The notes under the pieces: model-generated | Seen by the model: the letters and a program-made list of their open reading frames with translations, nothing else | Told to the model about the DNA's origin: nothing | Databases searched by the model: none | Shown: in pieces, positions 4,358-23,504 of the stretch | Layout: each line of letters begins with the position of its first letter | How positions within the stretch are numbered: position 1 is the first letter of the stretch | From: an uncultured Acidobacteriota bacterium | GTDB lineage: Bacteria; Acidobacteriota; Terriglobia; UBA7540 | Assembly (NCBI GenBank): GCA_963808085.1 | Contig: CAWEFC010000006.1 | Coordinates: 137,328-161,327 of the forward strand | DNA: 24,000 nt | Reading direction: 5' to 3' | Position numbers and translations under genes: made by a program

Positions 4358-6214
4358 TCAGGCTCGAACCAACTGGTCCTCTTCCGGTGATTGTGCCACC
4401 GGGCGCGGTGGAGGAATGTAGCCCTCGGGCAAGTCTCCATTGTCAGGGCGCAGGTATTGCAAATAACGTGGCTTGAGGGAGGCGACCAGCTCGCGGCGCG
4501 TTTTGGTTTTGAGCGGCCGGCCAGGATAAATCTTTCCCACCCGCGCGAGCATTTTCTCCGAGAGCAGTCCGGAGAACATCACGAGCGGCCATTTAAAGTT
4601 CGGGCCATTCGTGCGCCGCAGCTTCAGAAGCCAGACGATGAGCGAGCCGAATTTCCACATAAGCGGCGCCCACCAAGTGTTGGAGGTCGGACCTAAATCC
4701 ATCTTCCAACACTTCATGATGATTTGCCACTGCAGCGGCGTAAGCTGCCGCGTCTCGGAAACGCCATGCTGCTTTTCCATGCGCGTGTCGTGCAGCGGGG
4801 TGAAGATGGATGGGACGAGAATGGCGAAAAGGCCACGGCGCTCGATTTCATAGAGCAAGTCGAGGGTGGCCCGCGAATCGTCGTCGGTCTCGCCGGGATT
4901 GCCCACCATCAATGTCATCACGGGGAACCAGTTGTTTTCATTGGCTACACGCAGGCCTTCCAGAATTACACTGGGCCAGTCGTCGATGGAGAACGGCACA
5001 CCCTTACTGGGCATGATCTGCTTGGCCATACGCACCGACCCGGTTTCAAATCCGATCAGCGGCGAGAGCGCGCGCTTCTCCGGGTGCGTGCTCAGGCGAA
5101 TGCGCACGGGGCTCTTGTCGAGAATCTTCGCGGAGAGTTGTTTGATCAGCAGCGGGTCGACAACAAAGGGCGCCATGGTGCTGTGGCTCAGCAGGTGGCT
5201 CTTCACGCCGGGGGTATCGACAATGTCGGTGTAGAGAGATACCAGCGCCTCGCGATTGGGAAAGAAAAACGGCGTGCCGGTCCGCACCTGGCCCCAAATA
5301 AACATGTCCTCGGTGGCCAGGGAAATCTGATTGTTACCCTCGCGGACGTTGGCGCGAACCGCCGCCATGATCTTGTCTTTGGGAACATCAAGTTGCGGAT
5401 TCAAGTCGGGCACGCAGAACTGGCATCGCCGCCCGCAGCCAGTGGTCATTTCGATGACGCCAAACGTGGTGCGCTTTTCCGGCACCAGAATGGCCTCGCG
5501 GTCCATGGGATGCGCCACGTTGACCTCGCGGGGCAGGGGTTCACCCCGGACGGCCTGGTGAAACAGGCTGACGGCGTCCACCGATTCGCTGCGTCCTTCC
5601 ACCACGCAATCCACGCTCAAACTCTCGAAGCTGTTGGTTTGGGTGATCTGCCAGCCGCCTGATCCACCCACGATGACTTTGAAATTCTGGCGGAAGGGAT
5701 TGGCCTTGATCTTCGCGAACATCATCTTGGCGTAGTGAGAATTAATGGGTTCTTTCGAAGATCCAAACATCGAGGTGTAAACACCCGCGGCGAACGTGAC
5801 GCCGAGCGGGTTATGGGTTGAGACGCCGACCGCGCGCGTTCGAGGGCCGAGGAATTTGTCGAGATCGTCGGGATAGCAAACCACGATGTCTTCAGGGCGA
5901 AATTCCCTCAGCAGGGATTTTTCCACCAGGCGCACGCCCGCCGGCATGTAACGCGCTGTACCATCGGCGTTGTGTTCCACCTTGCGCCACGTGGGGTATT
6001 TATCGTTAATGACGAATTCCATCCAGATCGGCAAAGAAGCCAGGGCCATCTGAATGAAATAGCCGGCGTGATCGATGGTCTCGGTCAGCGGAGCCGTCAG
6101 GACGATGAGCTTGCCGCCGTCCGCAGGCGGTGCGTATGGTGGAGCAACGACCCCGCCACGATGCGTGCCGTTGCCGTTCGTATGGCTGTTCCCACGGAAC
6201 AGACCTTTAAGCAT
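4358..6214 (-). CDS. Radical SAM protein with N-terminal B12-binding-like domain and extended C-terminal region
   Basis: 618 aa. The CxxxCxxC cluster motif is in TTGCGRRCQFCVPD, preceded by a Rossmann-like segment (KVIVGGSGG). Convergent with gad. Confidence 0.8.
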   Translation of the reverse strand: MLKGLFRGNSHTNGNGTHRGGVVAPPYAPPADGGKLIVLTAPLTETIDHAGYFIQMALASLPIWMEFVINDKYPTWRKVEHNADGTARYMPAGVRLVEKSLLREFRPEDIVVCYPDDLDKFLGPRTRAVGVSTHNPLGVTFAAGVYTSMFGSSKEPINSHYAKMMFAKIKANPFRQNFKVIVGGSGGWQITQTNSFESLSVDCVVEGRSESVDAVSLFHQAVRGEPLPREVNVAHPMDREAILVPEKRTTFGVIEMTTGCGRRCQFCVPDLNPQLDVPKDKIMAAVRANVREGNNQISLATEDMFIWGQVRTGTPFFFPNREALVSLYTDIVDTPGVKSHLLSHSTMAPFVVDPLLIKQLSAKILDKSPVRIRLSTHPEKRALSPLIGFETGSVRMAKQIMPSKGVPFSIDDWPSVILEGLRVANENNWFPVMTLMVGNPGETDDDSRATLDLLYEIERRGLFAILVPSIFTPLHDTRMEKQHGVSETRQLTPLQWQIIMKCWKMDLGPTSNTWWAPLMWKFGSLIVWLLKLRRTNGPNFKWPLVMFSGLLSEKMLARVGKIYPGRPLKTKTRRELVASLKPRYLQYLRPDNGDLPEGYIPPPRPVAQSPEEDQLVRA

Positions 6215-6646
6215 GCCAATGCTCCGAGTGAAGATTCGCCGAATGTAAGCTTGGCTTGTCCAGGCGCCCTGAACTCTGATCTAACGCGCTTTCAAATTCT
6301 ACCCGAAATGAATTGCTGAATCCATAACTATTGAGGGACGGGTCAGGATTTCGTCATTGTCTCGTGAAAATTCGCCTTGGGAGTCATGGCGAAAACTTGG
6401 CTATGAGCCCGATGTGAGCGGCCACGCGCGATGGAAAACCCAACTTTCTCACCATGTGAAAATTTCTCTTGCATTCCCGCTTTTTCCTATGGCGATATTG
6501 CTTTGCGTAGGAAAACGCCCGATATGGTCTATACAACATCCAATTCGCAGCTCGGTCGGCTCCGGCCAAGCGGCGGCAAAGACTGCACCCGGGCGTCACT
6601 CGAGCCCCTTCGGTAAGGTTCGACGGTCCTGACCTGCGCTCTTCCT

Positions 6647-6652
6647 CATAAT
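6647..6652 (+). promoter_or_regulatory. Candidate -10 box CATAAT placed 5-7 nt before the first Y-RNA-like module
   Basis: CATAAT at 6647-6652. Module 0 starts at G6657. No convincing -35 was found, so this is weak. Confidence 0.25.
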
Positions 6653-6656
6653 TTTT

Positions 6657-6726
6657 GACTGGGTGGCGCCGATGGCGGCTACATCGATTTGAAAACCGAC
6701 TGCCGCCGTTACTTGTTCCCCCAGTC
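6657..6726 (+). ncRNA. Y-RNA-like module 0 (short, degenerate)
   Basis: Terminal stem GACUGGG/CCCAGUC (6657-6663 with 6720-6726). The 3' strand carries the shared CUUGUUCC motif. Upper helix is GGCGGC/GCCGCC. The 5' strand has a 4-nt bulge where the other modules have a single U. Confidence 0.35.
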
Positions 6727-6732
6727 GGGTTC

Positions 6733-6821
6733 GGCCAGTGGTGAAGGTTGCGGTTACTTCGTGGCAGACCTTGTAAAAGGTGGGGTTCGAATCCCCGGTC
6801 CGCGCCACTAGTTCCCTGGCC
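6733..6821 (+). ncRNA. Y-RNA-like module 1 (Ro-binding-like stem plus GNRA hairpin plus T-arm-like hairpin)
   Basis: Stem layout: GGCCAG/CUGGCC, bulged U, GG/CC, bulged U, GA/UU, asymmetric internal loop, then GG(U)UGCGG/CCGCGCC. The apex holds ACCUU-GUAA-AAGGU (6768-6781) and GGGG-UUCGAAU-CCCC (6782-6796). Confidence 0.55.
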
Positions 6822-6827
6822 CTAATT

Positions 6828-6993
6828 TCGCCGGTGGTGAAAGGTAAGGGTTACTTCGCCGCCAACCAACAACGCGCAGAGGCGGGCGCCTCTGCCAGGG
6901 CTTGAGCTAGCCGGGACGGGAGCGTAGCTCCGATTCGCCAGGTTCCGGCGGGTGATGCCTTGAGTTGGTCCCTTGCCGCAAGTTCCCCGGCGA
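6828..6993 (+). ncRNA. Y-RNA-like module 2 (long, multi-hairpin apex)
   Basis: Stem layout: UCGCCGG/CCGGCGA, bulged U, GG/CC, bulged U, GA/UU, internal loop, then GGUAAGGG/CCCUUGCC (8 bp, one U-G). The apex contains GCAGAGGC-GGGC-GCCUCUGC and GGAGC-GUA-GCUCC. It shares the 9-mer GCGTAGCTC with the D-arm region of module 3. Confidence 0.5.
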
Positions 6994-7007
6994 GCGTTTC
7001 AGTACGT

Positions 7008-7085
7008 TTCACCGCCGAGGCGCTGAGGCGCAGAGAAGAGATCTCGCGTTTGCAAACCTCAGCGCCTTGGCGTCTCAGTGGTGAA
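7008..7085 (+). other. Long imperfect hairpin between modules 2 and 3
   Basis: UUUCACC/GGUGAAA (7 bp) encloses GCCGAGGCGCUGAGG/CCUCAGCGCCUUGGC (15 bp, one G-U). The 3' side contains another CAG-U-GG-U-GA-A motif with no matching GUUCC partner. Confidence 0.4.
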
Positions 7086-7093
7086 AAAGCAAG

Positions 7094-7230
7094 TTCGGAC
7101 GGTGGTGAAGACTTGGGTTACTTCGCCTTGTAAGCGGGTGGTGCAGGTTCGAATCCTGTCGTGGGCATAAGACGCCCGCGTAGCTCAGTGGTAGAGCACC
7201 TATACCCAGTCGCTTGTTCCCCGTCCGGAA
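7094..7230 (+). ncRNA. YrlA-like Y RNA (module 3): Ro-binding-like stem capped by a circularly permuted tRNA-like domain
   Basis: Stem layout: CGGACGG/CCGUCCG (7096-7102 with 7221-7227), bulged U, GG/CC, bulged U, GA/UU, internal loop, then UUGGGU/ACCCAG. The apex reads in this order:
- anticodon-like arm UUCGC-CUUGUAA-GCGGG
- UGGU
- T arm GCAGG-UUCGAAU-CCUGU
- CGUGGGC, loop AUAAGAC, GCCCGCG (a closed acceptor stem)
- UA
- D arm GCUC-AGUGGUA-GAGC. Confidence 0.7.
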
Positions 7231-7239
7231 GATGAATCA

Positions 7240-7360
7240 GGGGTTAGGGGTCAGGGATTAGGGGTTAGGGGCCTAGGGCTTATGGTTCGAGTGTGGCCCA
7301 GCGGTTCTCGGTAGAACGTAGTTGGTTTTCCCTAACCCCTAATCCCTGACCCCTAACCCC
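7240..7360. repeat. Perfect 31-bp inverted repeat of G-rich heptamers flanking a 59-nt loop
   Basis: GGGGTTAGGGGTCAGGGATTAGGGGTTAGGG (7240-7270) is the exact reverse complement of 7330-7360. The left arm reads as heptamers GGGGTTA GGGGTCA GGGATTA GGGGTTA. Confidence 0.9.
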
Positions 7361-7397
7361 AAACCCCGTGTCCCGTAACGAAAGGAGGCACCGCATC

Positions 7398-8717
7398 ATG
7401 GCACGTTTGAATCTGCAGAATTGGCGGTCGTGGCTTGCTCACCGCACGCACGAAGGTGGGCCGGCCAAGACCATTACGCCGGAGCTGGAGCTTCGGCGCT
7501 CGGTAATGGCCTGCTTGCTTTGGGAGGACCAGTTCTACGAGGACGGAGTCGCCATCGCCGGCCGCATCGCCGAGTTGGTTCCTCGCGTCGAGGCCGGCCA
7601 TGTGGCGGACATCGCCATTGAAGCGCGCGAAAAGATGCACTTGCGGCATGCGCCTCTCTTGCTCGTGCGGGAGATGGCCCGGCACTCGACGCACCGCGCG
7701 CTGGTGGGAGAGACGCTGGCGCGGGTCATTCAGTGCGCCGACGAGCTCACCGAGTTCCTGGCCATCTACTGGAAGGACGGCCGTGTGCCGCTTTCCGGGC
7801 AGGTGAAGAAGGGTTTGGCGGCGGCCTTCGGCAAGTTTGATGCCTACCAGCTTGCCAAGTACGACCGCCCAGGCCCCGTGCGCCTGCGCGACGTGCTCTT
7901 CCTCTCGCACGCCAAGCCTCGCGATGAGGCTCAGGCGGAAGTGTGGAAGGGTTTGGTGGAGGGCAAGCTCGCCTCGCCCGACACCTGGGAAGTAGCGCTT
8001 TCCGCGGGCGCCGACAAGCGTGCGGCGTGGGAGCGGCTGATCCAGGAGCGCAAGCTCGGCGCGCTGGCCTTGCTGCGGAACCTCCGCAACATGCAGGCAG
8101 CCGGGGTGGAGCGGGAACTCGTGCTGGGCGCGATCCGTTCCATGCGCACGGACCGGGTTCTGCCCTTCCGCTTCATCGCCGCCGCGCGCCACGCCCCGCA
8201 GTGGGAGGAGGCGCTGGAAGAGGCCATGCTCAAGAGCCTCGCCGAGCGCCCCAAGCTGCCGGGGAAGACCGTGCTGCTGGTGGACGTCTCCGGCAGCATG
8301 ACGGCGGCCCTGTCGCGCCAGTCGGAAATGTTGCGTACCGACGCGGCACACGGGCTGGCGATTCTGCTGCGCGAACTCGCCGAGCGGGCAAGCATCTACA
8401 GCTTCTCGAACAAGCTGGTGGAGGTTCCCGCGCGGCACGGCTTCGCCTTGCGCGATGCCATTGACCAGAGCCAGACCCACGGGGGCACCCTGCTCGGTGG
8501 AGCTCTCGCGGGGATGCAGAAACGGTTCGACCGCCTCATCGTCATCACCGACGAGCAGGCGCACGACAAGGTTCCTGCTCCCCGGGGCCGCGGCTACGTC
8601 ATCAACGTGGGCAGCTTTAAGAATGGCGTGGGCTACGGCGAGTGGGTGCACATCGACGGCTGGAGCGAAGCCGTGATCGAATACATCCGCTCGCTGGAAG
8701 AACTCCGCGCCGATTAG
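7398..8717 (+). CDS. rsr: TROVE-domain / vWA-domain protein (Ro60 ortholog-like, Rsr)
   Basis: The N-terminal region (HEGGPAKTITPELELRRSVMACLLWEDQFYEDG...) resembles the bacterial TROVE module. The C-terminal vWA domain has a MIDAS motif in VLLVDVSGSM. AAAGGAGG lies 9 nt upstream of ATG 7398; the track's GTG at 7368 would sit inside the inverted repeat. The Y-RNA-like array directly upstream on the same strand supports the call. Confidence 0.75.
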   Translation: MARLNLQNWRSWLAHRTHEGGPAKTITPELELRRSVMACLLWEDQFYEDGVAIAGRIAELVPRVEAGHVADIAIEAREKMHLRHAPLLLVREMARHSTHRALVGETLARVIQCADELTEFLAIYWKDGRVPLSGQVKKGLAAAFGKFDAYQLAKYDRPGPVRLRDVLFLSHAKPRDEAQAEVWKGLVEGKLASPDTWEVALSAGADKRAAWERLIQERKLGALALLRNLRNMQAAGVERELVLGAIRSMRTDRVLPFRFIAAARHAPQWEEALEEAMLKSLAERPKLPGKTVLLVDVSGSMTAALSRQSEMLRTDAAHGLAILLRELAERASIYSFSNKLVEVPARHGFALRDAIDQSQTHGGTLLGGALAGMQKRFDRLIVITDEQAHDKVPAPRGRGYVINVGSFKNGVGYGEWVHIDGWSEAVIEYIRSLEELRAD

Positions 8718-8720
8718 CAG

Positions 8721-8763
8721 CGGCCGGCCGGGAAGAACGTTCTCCCGGCTGGCCGTTTCTTTG
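8721..8763 (+). terminator. Rho-independent terminator after rsr
   Basis: CGGCCGGCCGGGAAGAAC / GTTCTCCCGGCTGGCCG forms a near-perfect hairpin starting 4 nt after the TAG, followed by TTTCTTTG. Confidence 0.7.
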
Positions 8764-9604
8764 TGTCGGGGCAATCCGCTTTGGCCTCGCTCGCTTGGGC
8801 GTACTTGGCCCTCCGCTAAATGACTTATTTTCAGATACTTATTCGGATACCACAAAGTCCGTAGTCATAAGTAACTTATTTTCTTCAAGTTATCCGGGTA
8901 GTGGGAATGGAGCGGAAAAATGGGGAGTTTTTCGAGTCAAAGATCGATGTAACTAGGTTTGTTTTCTATAATTAATCGGCTATTTTATATAACTATATTG
9001 TTTTCAAATACTTGGTGGCTTCCGCCATTTTGTCAGAAATTTGTCCGTTTTTTTCAATAACTTATCGGGACCACCCTTCATTTCGACATCTTTTTTATTT
9101 TCGCTGGTGGGCTTGATTAGCATCGATAAAATGTCGATTGGTACGGCCTTCGGAGGATCAATTCGTCGCTTCCTCTCTCGACTTCCGGCCCGCAGGAGGG
9201 GCTTTTTCCACCCCGCAGAAGGCGCGCGAATTCACACAACCAACCTGGAGCCAAGCAATCTTGTCTCCAAACTCTGCGCCGACCCGACAGGCTGTCCAGT
9301 AACAGGAAGAATCTTCTTGTCGAATTATCGCCCGATGTTCCGGGGACTACGTTCCGGAGGCACCTCGTTTTCTGGTTCTGGAGTGGCGGAAGGTGGCCGC
9401 TGCCAAGCCTCGTGGACCGAAGGCAGAGACCGTTGACTTTCGCCCCACCGCGACGGTCCCAGCCGCCACCCGTGCGAAAACCAGTGTAACGAGTGTCCTG
9501 TCCCCGGGTCCCCGGATGACGGTCTGCGGAAAAGATTGGATAGGGCAGATTCAAGATTTAACAACAAGCTCCGCCTGTAACTACTGTACGTCGCGGGTCT
9601 CTGC

Positions 9605-9934
9605 TCACTCCAGACGATCGCGACGTAGGAATGCTTCGAGGTCTCGTGAGGCGTGGACGACCCGAAGAATCTCTACTCCATCCGGGCGCGGTCGGTAGAG
9701 TACGAGCATTCTCTCGAAGCCCGAGACTCGAAACACCCGCAAAGCGACAAGAGCAGGGTTCTTGAGGCGAGAATACCATCCCATGTTGGGCTGGGTGGCG
9801 AGGAGCGAAAATGTTTCGTGGGCTGCGAGGAGAAAGTTGTGACCAACTTTGGGGCTTGCGTGAGTAGCAAGATAATAAGCCTGGTCGTCAAGATCTTGAT
9901 CGGCCTTGGGGCGAATAACGTAGCGGGCACTCAG
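9605..9934 (-). CDS. parE: ParE/RelE-family toxin (109 codons, no ATG/GTG/TTG start; candidate CTG start overlapping the antitoxin stop)
   Basis: Manual translation gives (L/M)SARYVIRPKADQDLDDQAYYLATHASPKVGHNFLLAAHETFSLLATQPNMGWYSRLKNPALVALRVFRVSGFERMLVLYRPRPDGVEILRVVHASRDLEAFLRRDRLE*. This has typical ParE architecture and length. The frame opens after a TGA. The only plausible start is CTG at 9934-9932, within CTGA, which overlaps the antitoxin TGA stop. Absent from the ORF track. Confidence 0.65.
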   Translation of the reverse strand: MSARYVIRPKADQDLDDQAYYLATHASPKVGHNFLLAAHETFSLLATQPNMGWYSRLKNPALVALRVFRVSGFERMLVLYRPRPDGVEILRVVHASRDLEAFLRRDRLE

Positions 9935-10173
9935 CGAGTACCGGTCTTCTTCAGGCGTTCATCCAACGAGCGATGTTTGGCTTCCCAATAACCCGGCCCG
10001 GTCTCGATTGGTTCGCCGGAATAGAGACCTTCGAGGGCCAAAGCTTCAAGCTCGTCCTCTGCCCGCTGCTCAGCGCGGACCAAACGCTCGACATAGGCTT
10101 CCACCGTAAGTCCGTCAGCCTCCGCTCGGGAGCGGAGCCTTACTTCGAGCTCGGGATGGATCGCAATCGTCAT
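9931..10173 (-). CDS. parD: ParD-type antitoxin
   Basis: MTIAIHPELEVRLRSRAEADGLTVEAYVERLV...LEGLYSGEPIETGPGYWEAKHRSLDERL resembles ParD-family antitoxins. The ORF-track version extends to 10260; the shorter ATG at 10173 gives the usual 80-aa size. Start is uncertain. Confidence 0.7.
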   Translation of the reverse strand: MTIAIHPELEVRLRSRAEADGLTVEAYVERLVRAEQRAEDELEALALEGLYSGEPIETGPGYWEAKHRSLDERLKKTGTR

Positions 10174-10465
10174 GGGGCTTTCGCTCGTGCTGACAAAAGC
10201 CATTTTACGACATTTTCGCTCAACGGTCGAGCGGCGTAGCGCAGCGCGGCGGAGCCGCAACCAAACAGGATCACCACAGAAACCGCAGAGTGTCTGCCCG
10301 CCTTTGGCGGGTCCATAGTGCCGGAAACTTCCCGTTGCCGTTACGAATAATCAATAACTTACGTGAAGTTTCTGGAGAGACCACGGAGGCAGAACACCGA
10401 GCACGTTTTGCTTCGTGGGCTCTGTACTACTATTCCCGAGATTCTGCGCAGCGTGCAAAGGTTTT

Positions 10466-10517
10466 GTGCCACGGGCATCCTGCCCGTGCTCGAGCATGGC
10501 CAGGATGGCCATGGCAC
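10466..10517. repeat. REP-like compound palindrome centred on CTCGAG
   Basis: There are two adjacent perfect hairpins, CACGGGCA-TCC-TGCCCGTG and CATGGCCA-GGA-TGGCCATG. The two halves are also imperfect reverse complements of each other (19 of 23 positions). Confidence 0.6.
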
Positions 10518-10526
10518 GGCGGGTAG

Positions 10527-10562
10527 CCACGGTCAACGTTTTTTTGACCGTGGTCTTTTCTC
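10527..10562 (+). terminator. Intrinsic-terminator-like hairpin with no obvious upstream + strand gene
   Basis: CCACGGTCAA-cgttttt-TTGACCGTGG (10-bp perfect stem) followed by TCTTTTCTC. Confidence 0.45.
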
Positions 10563-10782
10563 ACGCCATTACTCCGATCATTGTTATAAGCGCCGTCGCG
10601 ACAATAATTCAACTTCGTTCGACATCGAGGGGAAAACCCAAGGACAGGAAAGCACTGTCCGTGGCTACCCACCTAACCCGCGGCCCCTAATCCCTAAATT
10701 CCCCGCCGAGCAAACCTCGACGCATCAGATCTGGTATGTTAGTTTTAAATCTTCTTAAGCATTTTGGCTGGAAGTGAGGCAC

Positions 10783-22904: not shown

Positions 22905-22981
22905 GCGCGGGTGATGCAATGGGCAGACATGGCGGTCTCAAAAACCGCTTCTTGTGGGTTCAAATCCCTCTCCGCGCACCA
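22905..22981 (+). tRNA. tRNA with Leu anticodon CAA, 77 nt, short (5-nt) variable loop, CCA encoded
   Basis: Manual fold:
- acceptor GCGCGGG/TCCGCGC
- D arm ATG(C)-AATGGGCAG-(A)CAT
- anticodon arm GCGGT-CTCAAAA-ACCGC
- variable TTCTT
- T arm GTGGG-TTCAAAT-CCCTC (one mismatch)
- A73, then CCA. Confidence 0.75.
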
Positions 22982-22982
22982 G

Positions 22983-23073
22983 GGAAGCGTGGCTCAGTGG
23001 CGACGGCAGCGGGCTGTAGACCCGCCACCCCTTGTGGGTAACACCGAAGGTTCGACTCCTTCCGCTTCCACCA
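22983..23073 (+). tRNA. tRNA-Tyr (GUA), 91 nt, long variable region, CCA encoded
   Basis: Manual fold:
- acceptor GGAAGCG/CGCTTCC
- anticodon arm GCGGG-CTGTAGA-CCCGC
- ~20-nt variable region CACCCCTTGTGGGTAACACC
- T arm GAAGG-TTCGACT-CCTTC
- A73, then CCA. Confidence 0.8.
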
Positions 23074-23079
23074 AGATTT

Positions 23080-23158
23080 GCCGGGATGGTCAAAATGGCA
23101 AAGGCGCTCCGTTCAGACCGGAGAGATTTTGCGAGTTCGACTCTCGCTCCCGGCACCA
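23080..23158 (+). tRNA. tRNA with Leu anticodon CAG, 79 nt, short (7-nt) variable loop, CCA encoded
   Basis: Manual fold:
- acceptor GCCGGGA/TCCCGGC
- D arm GTC-AAAATGGCAAA-GGC
- anticodon arm CTCCG-TTCAGAC-CGGAG
- variable AGATTTT
- T arm GCGAG-TTCGACT-CTCGC
- A73, then CCA. Confidence 0.75.
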
Positions 23159-23164
23159 AGTTCG

Positions 23165-23238
23165 GCCCAAGTGACGCAATCGGTAGACGTGCCACTTTGA
23201 GATGGTGGATGTTGGAGGTTCGAATCCTCTCTTGGGCA
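23165..23238 (+). tRNA. tRNA with Leu anticodon GAG, 74 nt to the discriminator, short (5-nt) variable loop, CCA not fully encoded (ACC then next tRNA)
   Basis: Manual fold:
- acceptor GCCCAAG/CTTGGGC
- D arm ACG(C)-AATCGGTAG-(A)CGT
- anticodon arm CCACT-TTGAGAT-GGTGG
- variable ATGTT
- T arm GGAGG-TTCGAAT-CCTCT
- A73. Confidence 0.75.
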
Positions 23239-23240
23239 CC

Positions 23241-23328
23241 GGAAGAATGGCCGAGCGGTAAGGCACCGAGTTGCTAACTCGGAGTCTGGGTAAAACCGGC
23301 GCAGGTTCGATCCCTGTTTCTTCCGCCA
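23241..23328 (+). tRNA. tRNA-Ser (GCU), 88 nt, long variable arm, CCA encoded
   Basis: Manual fold:
- acceptor GGAAGAA/TTCTTCC
- D region GCCGAGCGGTAAGGCA
- anticodon arm CCGAG-TTGCTAA-CTCGG
- 18-nt variable arm
- T arm GCAGG-TTCGATC-CCTGT
- G73, then CCA. Confidence 0.85.
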
Positions 23329-23335
23329 AATTTTC

Positions 23336-23425
23336 GGAAGGTTGGCCGAGTCCGGTAAGGCTCCGGTCCTGAAAACCGGTGACTCCGTAAAAGGAGCAGG
23401 GGTTCGAATCCTCTACCTTCCGCCA
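23336..23425 (+). tRNA. tRNA-Ser (UGA), 90 nt, long variable arm, C at position 33, CCA encoded
   Basis: Manual fold:
- acceptor GGAAGGT/ACCTTCC
- D region GCCGAGTCCGGTAAGGCT
- anticodon arm CCGGT-CCTGAAA-ACCGG
- variable arm TGACTCCGTAAAAGGAGC
- T arm AGGGG-TTCGAAT-CCTCT
- G73, then CCA. Confidence 0.8.
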
Positions 23426-23430
23426 ACATT

Positions 23431-23504
23431 GGGGCCATAGCGAAATGGCATAGCAGAAGTCTTAAACACTTCGTTTCCGGGTTCGAATCCCGGTGGCCCC
23501 ACCA
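23431..23504 (+). tRNA. tRNA with Leu anticodon UAA, 74 nt, short (4-nt) variable loop, CCA encoded
   Basis: Manual fold:
- acceptor GGGGCCA/TGGCCCC
- D arm GCGA-AATGGCA-TAGC
- anticodon arm GAAGT-CTTAAAC-ACTTC
- variable GTTT
- T arm CCGGG-TTCGAAT-CCCGG
- A73, then CCA. Confidence 0.75.

Follow-up and report, generated by a model that had tools for sequence, protein, structure and literature searches.

Bacterial Rsr proteins and their Y RNAs

Rsr, the bacterial homologue of Ro60, together with adjacently encoded Y RNAs that include the tRNA-like form YrlA, is a kind of system already known, and precursors carrying multiple Y RNAs are known too (PMC4201824). In Mycobacterium smegmatis (YrlA and YrlB) and in Deinococcus radiodurans (Yrn2-tRNAAsp-Yrn1) the Y RNAs derive from a shared precursor near rsr, and across three species Chen et al. 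described one tRNA-like Y RNA accompanied by a hairpin type and/or a T-arm type (PMC4201824). The bacterial Rsr-binding motif has been published as GNCGAAN0-1G (PMC4201824). In Thermus phage phiLo, Ro60 binds a pair of upstream Y-like RNAs that carry CGAA motifs, and it forms a complex with PNPase, a Ro60 partner known from elsewhere (PMC12135203). Here, we analyze a stretch of 24,000 nucleotides (nt) from an uncultured soil bacterium of the Acidobacteriota, class Terriglobia (contig CAWEFC010000006.1), hereafter the window, in which an array of four Y-RNA-like modules lies upstream of an rsr gene.

Taken together, the evidence makes it likely that this is an Rsr ribonucleoprotein locus of a Terriglobia chromosome, comprising a promoter, a leader, four Y RNAs, rsr and a terminator-like hairpin, with Rsr binding putative. 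The protein family, the four conserved and covarying structures, and the conservation of strand and order are established. The modules and the protein gene are as follows.

6657-6726, plus strand: module 0 (M0), a 70-nt hairpin-type Y-RNA-like gene (fold z = -4.6; orthologue covariation).
6733-6821, plus strand: module 1 (M1), an 89-nt Y-RNA-like gene (covariation in alignment A3).
6828-6993, plus strand: module 2 (M2), a 166-nt Y-RNA-like gene (covariation in alignment A4).
7094-7230, plus strand: module 3 (M3), a YrlA-type Y RNA (Rfam YrlA match; covariation in alignment A1).
7384-7388, plus strand: rsr ribosome-binding site GGAGG, 9 nt before the ATG (read from the sequence).
7398-8717, plus strand: rsr, encoding a Ro60/TROVE plus putative vWA protein of 439 amino acids (aa) (Pfam TROVE; phmmer match to 9KOP/9L5Y).

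Four modules on a shared chassis

Comparisons were made to a set of 80 loci with Rsr relatives (96% down to 67% identity, cited below by L numbers), each taken with 3 kb of flanking sequence. These were drawn from a genome collection in which 370 stretches matched our pattern, 252 of them confirmed by tblastn as encoding Rsr relatives. The nearest homologous loci all belonged to Acidobacteriota of the class Terriglobia and were mostly in metagenome-assembled genomes.

The presence of four Y-RNA-like modules before rsr, on its strand, as put forward in a preliminary description made from the sequence alone, is confirmed. Boundaries from profile hidden Markov models (HMMs) built on orthologue alignments (M0 6655-6727, M1 6730-6822, M2 6825-6994, M3 7091-7229) agreed with those first proposed to within 3 nt. 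A 33-nt direct repeat, corresponding to the 5′ strand, occurred in three copies (starting at 6729, 6826 and 7093), the 3′ strands were repeated as well, and the exact pattern GTGGTGAA-N6-7-GGTTACTTCG was found three times in the window and in none of 100 shuffles. The region 6640-7400 folded far more stably than its shuffles (z = -7.2), with single-module values of -4.6 (M0), -1.3 (M1), -2.4 (M2) and -2.9 (M3). The modules close with terminal stems of 7, 6, 7 and 9 base pairs (bp) for M0 to M3, respectively, and spacers of 6 nt each separate M0 from M1 and M1 from M2. Neither HMM nor pattern searches uncovered further module copies elsewhere in the window.

All four modules share a chassis in which the terminal stem varies, and covaries, in sequence, while the 5′ strand reads U-GG-(U/C)-GAA-(G/A), with an inner helix ending in (U/C)UAC-UUCG, and the 3′ strand reads (C)(G/A)C-(U/A)(U/A)G-UUCC. 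The layout first described (a bulged U, GG/CC, a bulged U or C, GA/UU, an asymmetric loop and an inner helix) fits M1-M3, and for M3 it also agrees with both the Rfam YrlA alignment and the RNAalifold consensus of 37 orthologues. In every family alignment the most conserved columns were the GGUGG.GAAG and UUCC(C) blocks; the GG.GAAG and UUCC blocks were invariant in M1 and M2, and the bulged stems that pair the ends covaried in M0-M2. Across all loci, 5′-strand matches took the forms GGTGAAG (81), GGCGAAG (38), GGTGAAA (29) and GGCGTAG (12). The third position of the motif thus alternates between U and C; M1-M3 of the window have U, and relatives often have the canonical C. GG(U/C)GAAG reads as a one-base variant of the published Rsr-binding motif, and this closeness to GNCGAAN0-1G (PMC4201824), together with the covarying bulged stems, supports the likeness to the Ro-binding helix of Y RNAs that had been noted at the outset. 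The inner domains differ, being a plain hairpin in M0, a small hairpin plus T-arm in M1, a multi-helix domain in M2 and a permuted tRNA-like structure in M3.

M0 consists of the terminal stem GACUGGG/CCCAGUC, followed by U, GG/CC and the inner helix. Pattern searches recovered an M0-type module in 39 further loci (40 with the window), always as the first of the array. At the motif position the window has GGCGCCG and its relatives GGCGAAG in a gap-free orthologue alignment, and this GCC-for-GAA substitution is one that the window has in common with L001-L003. For M0 the preliminary description assigned a 4-nt bulge and then GA/UU, which is probably in the wrong register and not the one homologous to the M0 orthologues, because the gap-free alignment shows CC substituting AA (GGCG-CC-G versus GGCG-AA-G). 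M1 combines the chassis, here with GGUGAAG, with a small variable hairpin and a canonical T-arm (GGGGUUCGAAUCCCC), and M2 carries GGUGAAA on its chassis and a multi-helix domain that includes a conserved hairpin (CGGGAGCGUAGCUCCG).

For M3, the component parts could be placed as a terminal stem (7094-7102/7221-7229), GGUGAAG (7104-7110), UUAC (7118-7121), a V-like hairpin, a T arm (7143-7159), a closed 7-bp acceptor-like stem (7160-7180), a D arm (7183-7197) and the 3′ strand GCUUG-UUCC (7212-7220). It sits 168 nt upstream of the rsr ATG, on the plus strand. The comparison with Rfam that had been proposed came out in part as expected: M3 matched the YrlA model (RF02553) end to end (model positions 1-114, 38.9 bits, E = 9.3e-7), below its gathering score, and M0-M2 had no Rfam match, in the case of M2 not even at E = 10. 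Because its score stays below the RF02553 gathering threshold, we file M3 as a divergent YrlA-type RNA and not as a member of the family as Rfam defines it. At gathering thresholds, Rfam detected only the seven tRNAs of the window.

The 5′ motif of M3 has a second possible pairing partner, in that GGYGAAG is complementary to a conserved downstream CUUCGCC (alignment A1, columns 16-22/33-39), and such a hairpin would exclude the Ro-binding helix. The corresponding helix in the minimum free energy fold of the single sequence (GGUGAAG/CUUCGCC, 7104-7127) was rejected: it was 93% pairable in 37 orthologues, with 0 compensatory changes and 12 uncompensated breaks.

Covariation and array conservation in related loci

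Orthologues of each module were gathered by sequence similarity, without reference to structure, aligned with MAFFT and folded with RNAalifold. The preliminary description had held that absence of covariation in homologous loci would count against the helices; compensatory changes were found in all four modules. They affected 20 of 31 pairs in M3 (A1, 37 sequences), 7 of 17 in M0 (A2, 16 sequences), 8 of 21 in M1 (A3, 34 sequences), where they fell in the terminal stem, inner helix and T stem, and 23 of 37 in M2 (A4, 14 sequences). When the individual cells of the alignments were scored, 93.2% were paired in M3 (41-47% with the 3′ partner slid), 95.2% in M0 (34-64% slid), 98.0% in M1 (39-53% slid) and 96.0% in M2 (40-56% slid), with double changes in 7 pairs of M0 and in 22 of 36 pairs of M2. 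Cells with double changes numbered 115 in M3, 27 in M0, 47 in M1 and 81 in M2, against 0-29 in the slid controls. The structures of M0-M2 were derived from the same alignments on which they were scored, which favours them somewhat, and the margin is large. The T, acceptor-like and D arms of M3 were 97-99.5% paired across its 37 sequences, again with compensatory changes under RNAalifold.

These results bear on whether the modules might be tRNA-derived repeats or pseudogenes in decay, functionless in themselves. M1 and M3 do carry tRNA-like T and D arm sequences, Rfam returns a weak tRNA match at 7102-7160 (18.5 bits versus a threshold of 29), and in two orthologues the score is over the tRNA threshold by a margin of about one bit. 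However, ARAGORN calls no tRNA within 6600-7400, the arms are permuted, with T before D as in YrlA, and M0 and M2 have no tRNA features at all. Moreover, every helix shows strong purifying selection with compensatory changes, and does so in genomes that have Rsr proteins with just 67-75% identity, which largely refutes the idea. Given the permuted arms, the lack of an ARAGORN call and the covariation, we exclude tRNA pseudogenes, an explanation whose chances we put at close to nil.

The two borderline orthologues are YrlA-type modules that Rfam names 'tRNA' (L055 2701-2771 and L046 2175-2244; 30.4 and 29.3 bits, threshold 29). Such calls constitute an annotation pitfall for these genomes and for soil metagenomes.

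In the 80 loci, searches with a profile HMM for each module type returned 483 raw matches, all on the rsr strand, and after overlaps were resolved every listed module lay upstream of rsr. The order M0-M1-(second M1-like)-M2-M3-(second M3-like) recurred across 77 related loci with at least one module. The M0-M1-M2-M3 architecture of the window is common to L001, L002 and L005, and 36 orthologous copies of M3, aligned from related loci, were, like that of the window, within 4 kb of rsr on its strand. The copy number and tight packing had been singled out as unusual in the preliminary description, a view that does not hold: because the number of modules per locus in related Terriglobia ranges over 1-7, with 5 the commonest (counts partly limited by the 3 kb of upstream sequence examined), four closely packed copies are ordinary for the class and not specific to the window. 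Among viral contigs, the 5′-strand pattern had five matches, and in the DNA examined none of them was accompanied by a homologue of Rsr or by a full module.

In roughly 45 of the 80 loci, an open reading frame (ORF) encoding a Cys-rich protein of about 105 aa (CxxC...C...C) was located inside the array on the rsr strand (L037 2386-2712, for example). It belongs to no Pfam family and is absent from the window and its closest relatives. One could therefore suppose that the modules serve a protein other than Rsr, be it this Cys-rich protein or tRNA-processing or tRNA-modifying enzymes, for which T and D arms are recognition elements (PMC4201824), so that the link to rsr would be one of operon context only; the conservation of the ORF within the array, on the same strand, speaks for this. 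We regard it as very improbable, in that the window and its closest relatives retain four modules where the Cys-rich ORF is missing, the invariant block corresponds to a one-base variant of the published Rsr-binding motif, and the modules accompany rsr in every locus examined.

A search of 20 related loci also revealed Acido-Lenti-1 RNA (RF01687) above its gathering score in L015 (1276-1322, minus strand) and L037 (5039-5084, plus strand), one copy lying in a spacer of the Y RNA array on the opposite strand.

The Rsr protein

The ORF at 7398-8717 had been taken for a TROVE protein from its translation, and this assignment stood: Pfam TROVE (PF05731) scored 58.3 bits against a cut-off of 23 (E = 1e-15), the match covering residues 190-277 only. 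Residues 15-434 aligned by phmmer to Thermus phage phiLo Ro60, the structure of which is solved (9KOP/9L5Y; E = 7e-27). The vWA half of the Pfam assignment was less clear-cut, with vWA_Ro60 (22.0 versus 27.7 bits) and VWA_2 (23.4 versus 27) just below their cut-offs; the MIDAS (metal ion-dependent adhesion site) motif DVSGS (DxSxS) is present at residues 296-300 and aligns with the same motif in 9L5Y. Among solved structures, the sequence search detected only the phage Ro60 and did not detect the D. radiodurans and Xenopus proteins. From the above-threshold TROVE match, the phiLo Ro60 alignment and the MIDAS motif, we take the ORF to encode an Rsr/Ro60 homologue that is somewhat short and divergent. 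A ring-shaped fold, on the outer surface of which the Y RNA stem would bind, is predicted for it from sequence similarity to the solved, ring-shaped homologue.

Promoter-like boxes, leader and hairpins

Several further features flank or separate the modules.

6469-6499, plus strand: promoter-like boxes, with a -35-like TTGCAT at 6469-6474 and a -10 region TATGGCGATATT at 6488-6499 (position kept in 27 loci).
6503-6640, plus strand: conserved leader (27 loci; covarying hairpin in alignment A6).
7007-7086, plus strand: inter-module hairpin (inverted repeat I3/I7; z = -5.4).
7240-7360, plus strand: long hairpin with perfect 31-bp arms and GGGGTTA-type heptamers (inverted repeat I1, 100% complementary; z = -8.9).
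8716-8768, plus strand: terminator-like GC-rich hairpin with U-rich tail GUUUCUUUGUGU (-41.3 kcal/mol, z = -4.4).

The promoter-like boxes hold their position about 25-35 nt before the conserved leader in 27 loci from several clades; those of the window lie about 160-190 nt before M0. In relatives they take the form CTTGCA or TTGTCA, 17 nt and TGG-CATCTT, or TTCACA-17-TACTCT. We infer that the boxes at 6469-6499 act as the promoter. CATAAT (6647-6652), which had been proposed as a -10 element, gives way to these boxes ahead of the conserved leader, and as a main promoter it was rejected: the A/T-rich patch is kept only in L001-L003, has no -35, and lies downstream of the conserved promoter and leader.

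The leader of the window contains a Shine-Dalgarno-like GCGUAGGAAAACGCCC, an ATG at 6524 and a 30-codon ORF (6524-6616). Its consensus across loci is the Shine-Dalgarno-like GCGUAGGA(G/A)AACGCCC followed by ATG or TTG, with an ORF of exactly 30 codons in 27 loci, the end of which is 39-97 nt, usually 39-58 nt, from M0. An internal hairpin shows compensatory changes (A6), and the complementary boxes ACGCCC/GGGCGU and GCGUAGG/CCU(A/G)CGC are conserved, with GCGUAGG/CCUGCGC as a possible closing stem in the window. A conserved peptide was considered and rejected, because substitutions were without codon periodicity (377/346/377 by codon position); the synonymous fraction, 154/593, was barely above that of the shifted frames (121/551 and 106/577). 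The ORF may be translated with the peptide sequence being irrelevant, or the leader may be a pure RNA element. An attenuator built on an intrinsic terminator between the leader and M0 was likewise rejected, as no hairpin plus U-tract was conserved across clades in the sequences compared.

Within the 7007-7086 hairpin, between M2 and M3, a fourth copy of CAGUGGUGAA is paired in the 3′ arm, and the hairpin is kept only in L001 and L002. It could plausibly be a processing structure or exonuclease stop, or it may be the remnant of a module. The 7240-7360 hairpin, between M3 and the rsr ribosome-binding site, was otherwise found only in L001, at a different position, so we do not regard it as a conserved part of the system. 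The L001 copy of this heptamer hairpin (2595-2730) is degenerate, precedes M3 and is flanked by a 19-nt duplication of the M3 5′ end (TTCGGACGGTGGTGAAGAC at 2579-2597 and 2747-2765), which suggests that insertion or recombination took place. Before its ribosome-binding site, L001 has another heptamer hairpin (GGGACAC/GGGATAC), and relatives have other GC-rich hairpins between modules. Downstream of the modules, the 8716-8768 hairpin is a putative terminator by its predicted fold, uncalled by the pattern scan.

The position of these elements invites a different account, namely that the modules are not released small RNAs and instead form a long, structured 5′ untranslated region of rsr acting in cis, for example as Rsr-binding autoregulatory sites governing mRNA stability or translation. 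The modules are indeed directly upstream of rsr on the same strand with no terminator detected between them, the conserved promoter and leader precede the whole block, and the long hairpin at 7240-7360 abuts the ribosome-binding site. Yet in Salmonella and M. smegmatis the homologous YrlA RNAs are cut out of precursors as stable small RNAs and are bound by Rsr (PMC4201824), every module is closed on itself by a terminal stem, conservation of the four distinct effector domains goes far beyond what autoregulation needs, and in relatives the distance between array and rsr can reach 2.9 kb, with an intervening ORF. We consider the cis-acting account distinctly unlikely.

How the locus may operate

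Our preferred reading, that of four Y RNAs acting with Rsr, would have the locus transcribed as one operon, from a promoter near 6469-6499 through the leader, M0, M1, M2, M3 and rsr to the terminator. The 5′ and 3′ ends of each Y RNA would pair into the chassis, with its terminal stem, bulged helix (GG(U/C)GAAG/UUCC), asymmetric loop and inner helix leading to the UUAC box, and by analogy to characterised Y RNAs this chassis would be the docking site of the Rsr ring. The distal 'effector' domains would then comprise the plain hairpin of M0, the V-like hairpin and T-arm of M1, the large multi-helix domain of M2 and the permuted tRNA mimic of M3. As these domains differ, the RNAs would serve different Rsr partners, with each of the four tethering or gating Rsr for its own. 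The RNAs would probably be cut from one precursor by endonuclease and exonuclease processing at the spacers and hairpins, the 6-nt spacers and the hairpins at 7007-7086 and 7240-7360 being candidate processing sites or exonuclease stops. Indirect support for a single transcript comes from those short spacers, from the one conserved promoter-like site ahead of the array and from the lack of any internal promoter or terminator call. Rsr binding, a separate partner per RNA, a single precursor, and the promoter and terminator roles are what we infer here.

Several observations weigh against this picture. M3 falls short of the YrlA gathering score (38.9 versus 69 bits), and no YrlA at gathering level was found in the window or in 20 related loci. 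M1-M3 of the window have U in place of the consensus C of the motif, and Rsr binding by M0 is doubtful, because GCC replaces the GAA of the motif. A generic sigma-70 promoter and terminator scan of 6150-8900 called neither, which leaves internal promoters possible. Arrays in relatives extend to about 2.9 kb, ORF included, making a single precursor less certain there. Lastly, the window contains no gene for a partner such as PNPase or RtcB, nor one for RtcA.

A more far-reaching version would make this a stress-responsive Ro operon, in which a translated 30-codon leader ORF senses translation and sets the output of the Y RNA array and rsr, and four to six ordered paralogues, M2 included, each recruit Rsr to a different partner. 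We think this version unlikely. If true, the set of Y RNAs would exceed in size and differentiation all those so far known from any organism.

Genomic neighbourhood

The neighbours of rsr are housekeeping genes, with functions in MqnA-type menaquinone synthesis, a major facilitator superfamily transporter, a pyridoxal phosphate-dependent decarboxylase, radical S-adenosylmethionine enzymes, DUF1015 and O-antigen-type genes. The window is part of a bacterial chromosome and not of a phage.

About 2 kb 3′ of rsr (8720-10770) is without a recognisable gene, the ORFs at 9041-9436, 9117-9554 (minus strand) and 10363-10758 belonging to no Pfam family, and the stretch 8810-9515 is kept in L001 and L002 only. 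Farther downstream, at 22905-23504, lie seven tandem tRNA genes, all with CCA encoded, the anticodons of which are restricted to Leu, Tyr and Ser (Leu-CAA, Tyr-GTA, Leu-CAG, Leu-GAG, Ser-GCT, Ser-TGA, Leu-TAA). The four with Leu anticodons are just 74-79 nt and have short variable loops; a long variable arm is normal for bacterial tRNA-Leu.

Comparison with known systems

The window Rsr resembles Xenopus laevis Ro60, D. radiodurans Rsr and phiLo Ro60 in that its TROVE region is followed by a putative vWA domain bearing a DxSxS MIDAS, and it is shorter than these, at 439 aa compared with about 500-540.

Among the RNAs, M3 is closest to YrlA (RF02553; Chen et al. 2014, PMC4201824; Wang et al. 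2018, 10.1101/312249). Like YrlA, it adjoins rsr on the same strand, bears a variant of the Rsr motif in the stem that pairs its ends, has the YUAY box as UUAC, and retains the tRNA core (a U8/A9-like UA, A14, G18G19 and the UUCGAAU T-loop), while its arms run T, closed acceptor-like, D, as in the solved YrlA (10.1101/312249). The 7 bp of its acceptor-like stem are the length that makes M. smegmatis YrlA an RNase P substrate (10.1101/312249). It departs from YrlA in its motif, GGUGAAG, where U replaces the consensus C, and in its score of 38.9 bits against a gathering score of 69.

The additional modules have parallels in Salmonella Typhimurium YrlB, M. smegmatis YrlB, D. radiodurans Yrn1/Yrn2 and phiLo Yrl1/Yrl2, all cases of extra Y RNAs beside a YrlA-type one near rsr. 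Known second Y RNAs come in a long hairpin form, like M0, and a T-arm-only form, like M1 (PMC4201824), whereas M2, a multi-helix junction of 166-200 nt, has no described counterpart. Unlike those systems, with two Y RNAs described per species, the Terriglobia loci hold four distinct and individually conserved paralogue families in a fixed order, with up to 6-7 copies in relatives.

No description of Y RNA arrays in Acidobacteria was found in the searchable literature, with the proviso that the supplementary tables of Chen et al. 2014 may list YrlA-type matches from Acidobacteria. What appears there as undescribed, and is uncaptured by Rfam, is the class-wide, ordered array of four to six Y RNA paralogues, along with three families (M0, M1 and M2) that have no curated model and a conserved leader with a fixed-length ORF. 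The curated Rfam YrlA model thereby misses an entire bacterial class. What is known of bacterial Ro60 and Y RNAs comes from three species, each having two Y RNAs; four Y RNA types on one putative Rsr-binding chassis offer a natural comparative series in which the parts for Rsr binding and for partner recruitment could be told apart.

A final parallel is with the vertebrate Y RNAs (human Y1, Y3, Y4 and Y5), which are paralogues that share the Ro-binding stem and differ in the loop or effector portion (PMC4030889). The vertebrate genes are separate Pol III units, unlike those of the window, which form a tandem bacterial array beside the protein gene, and the likeness is one of logic, not of shared paralogue ancestry.

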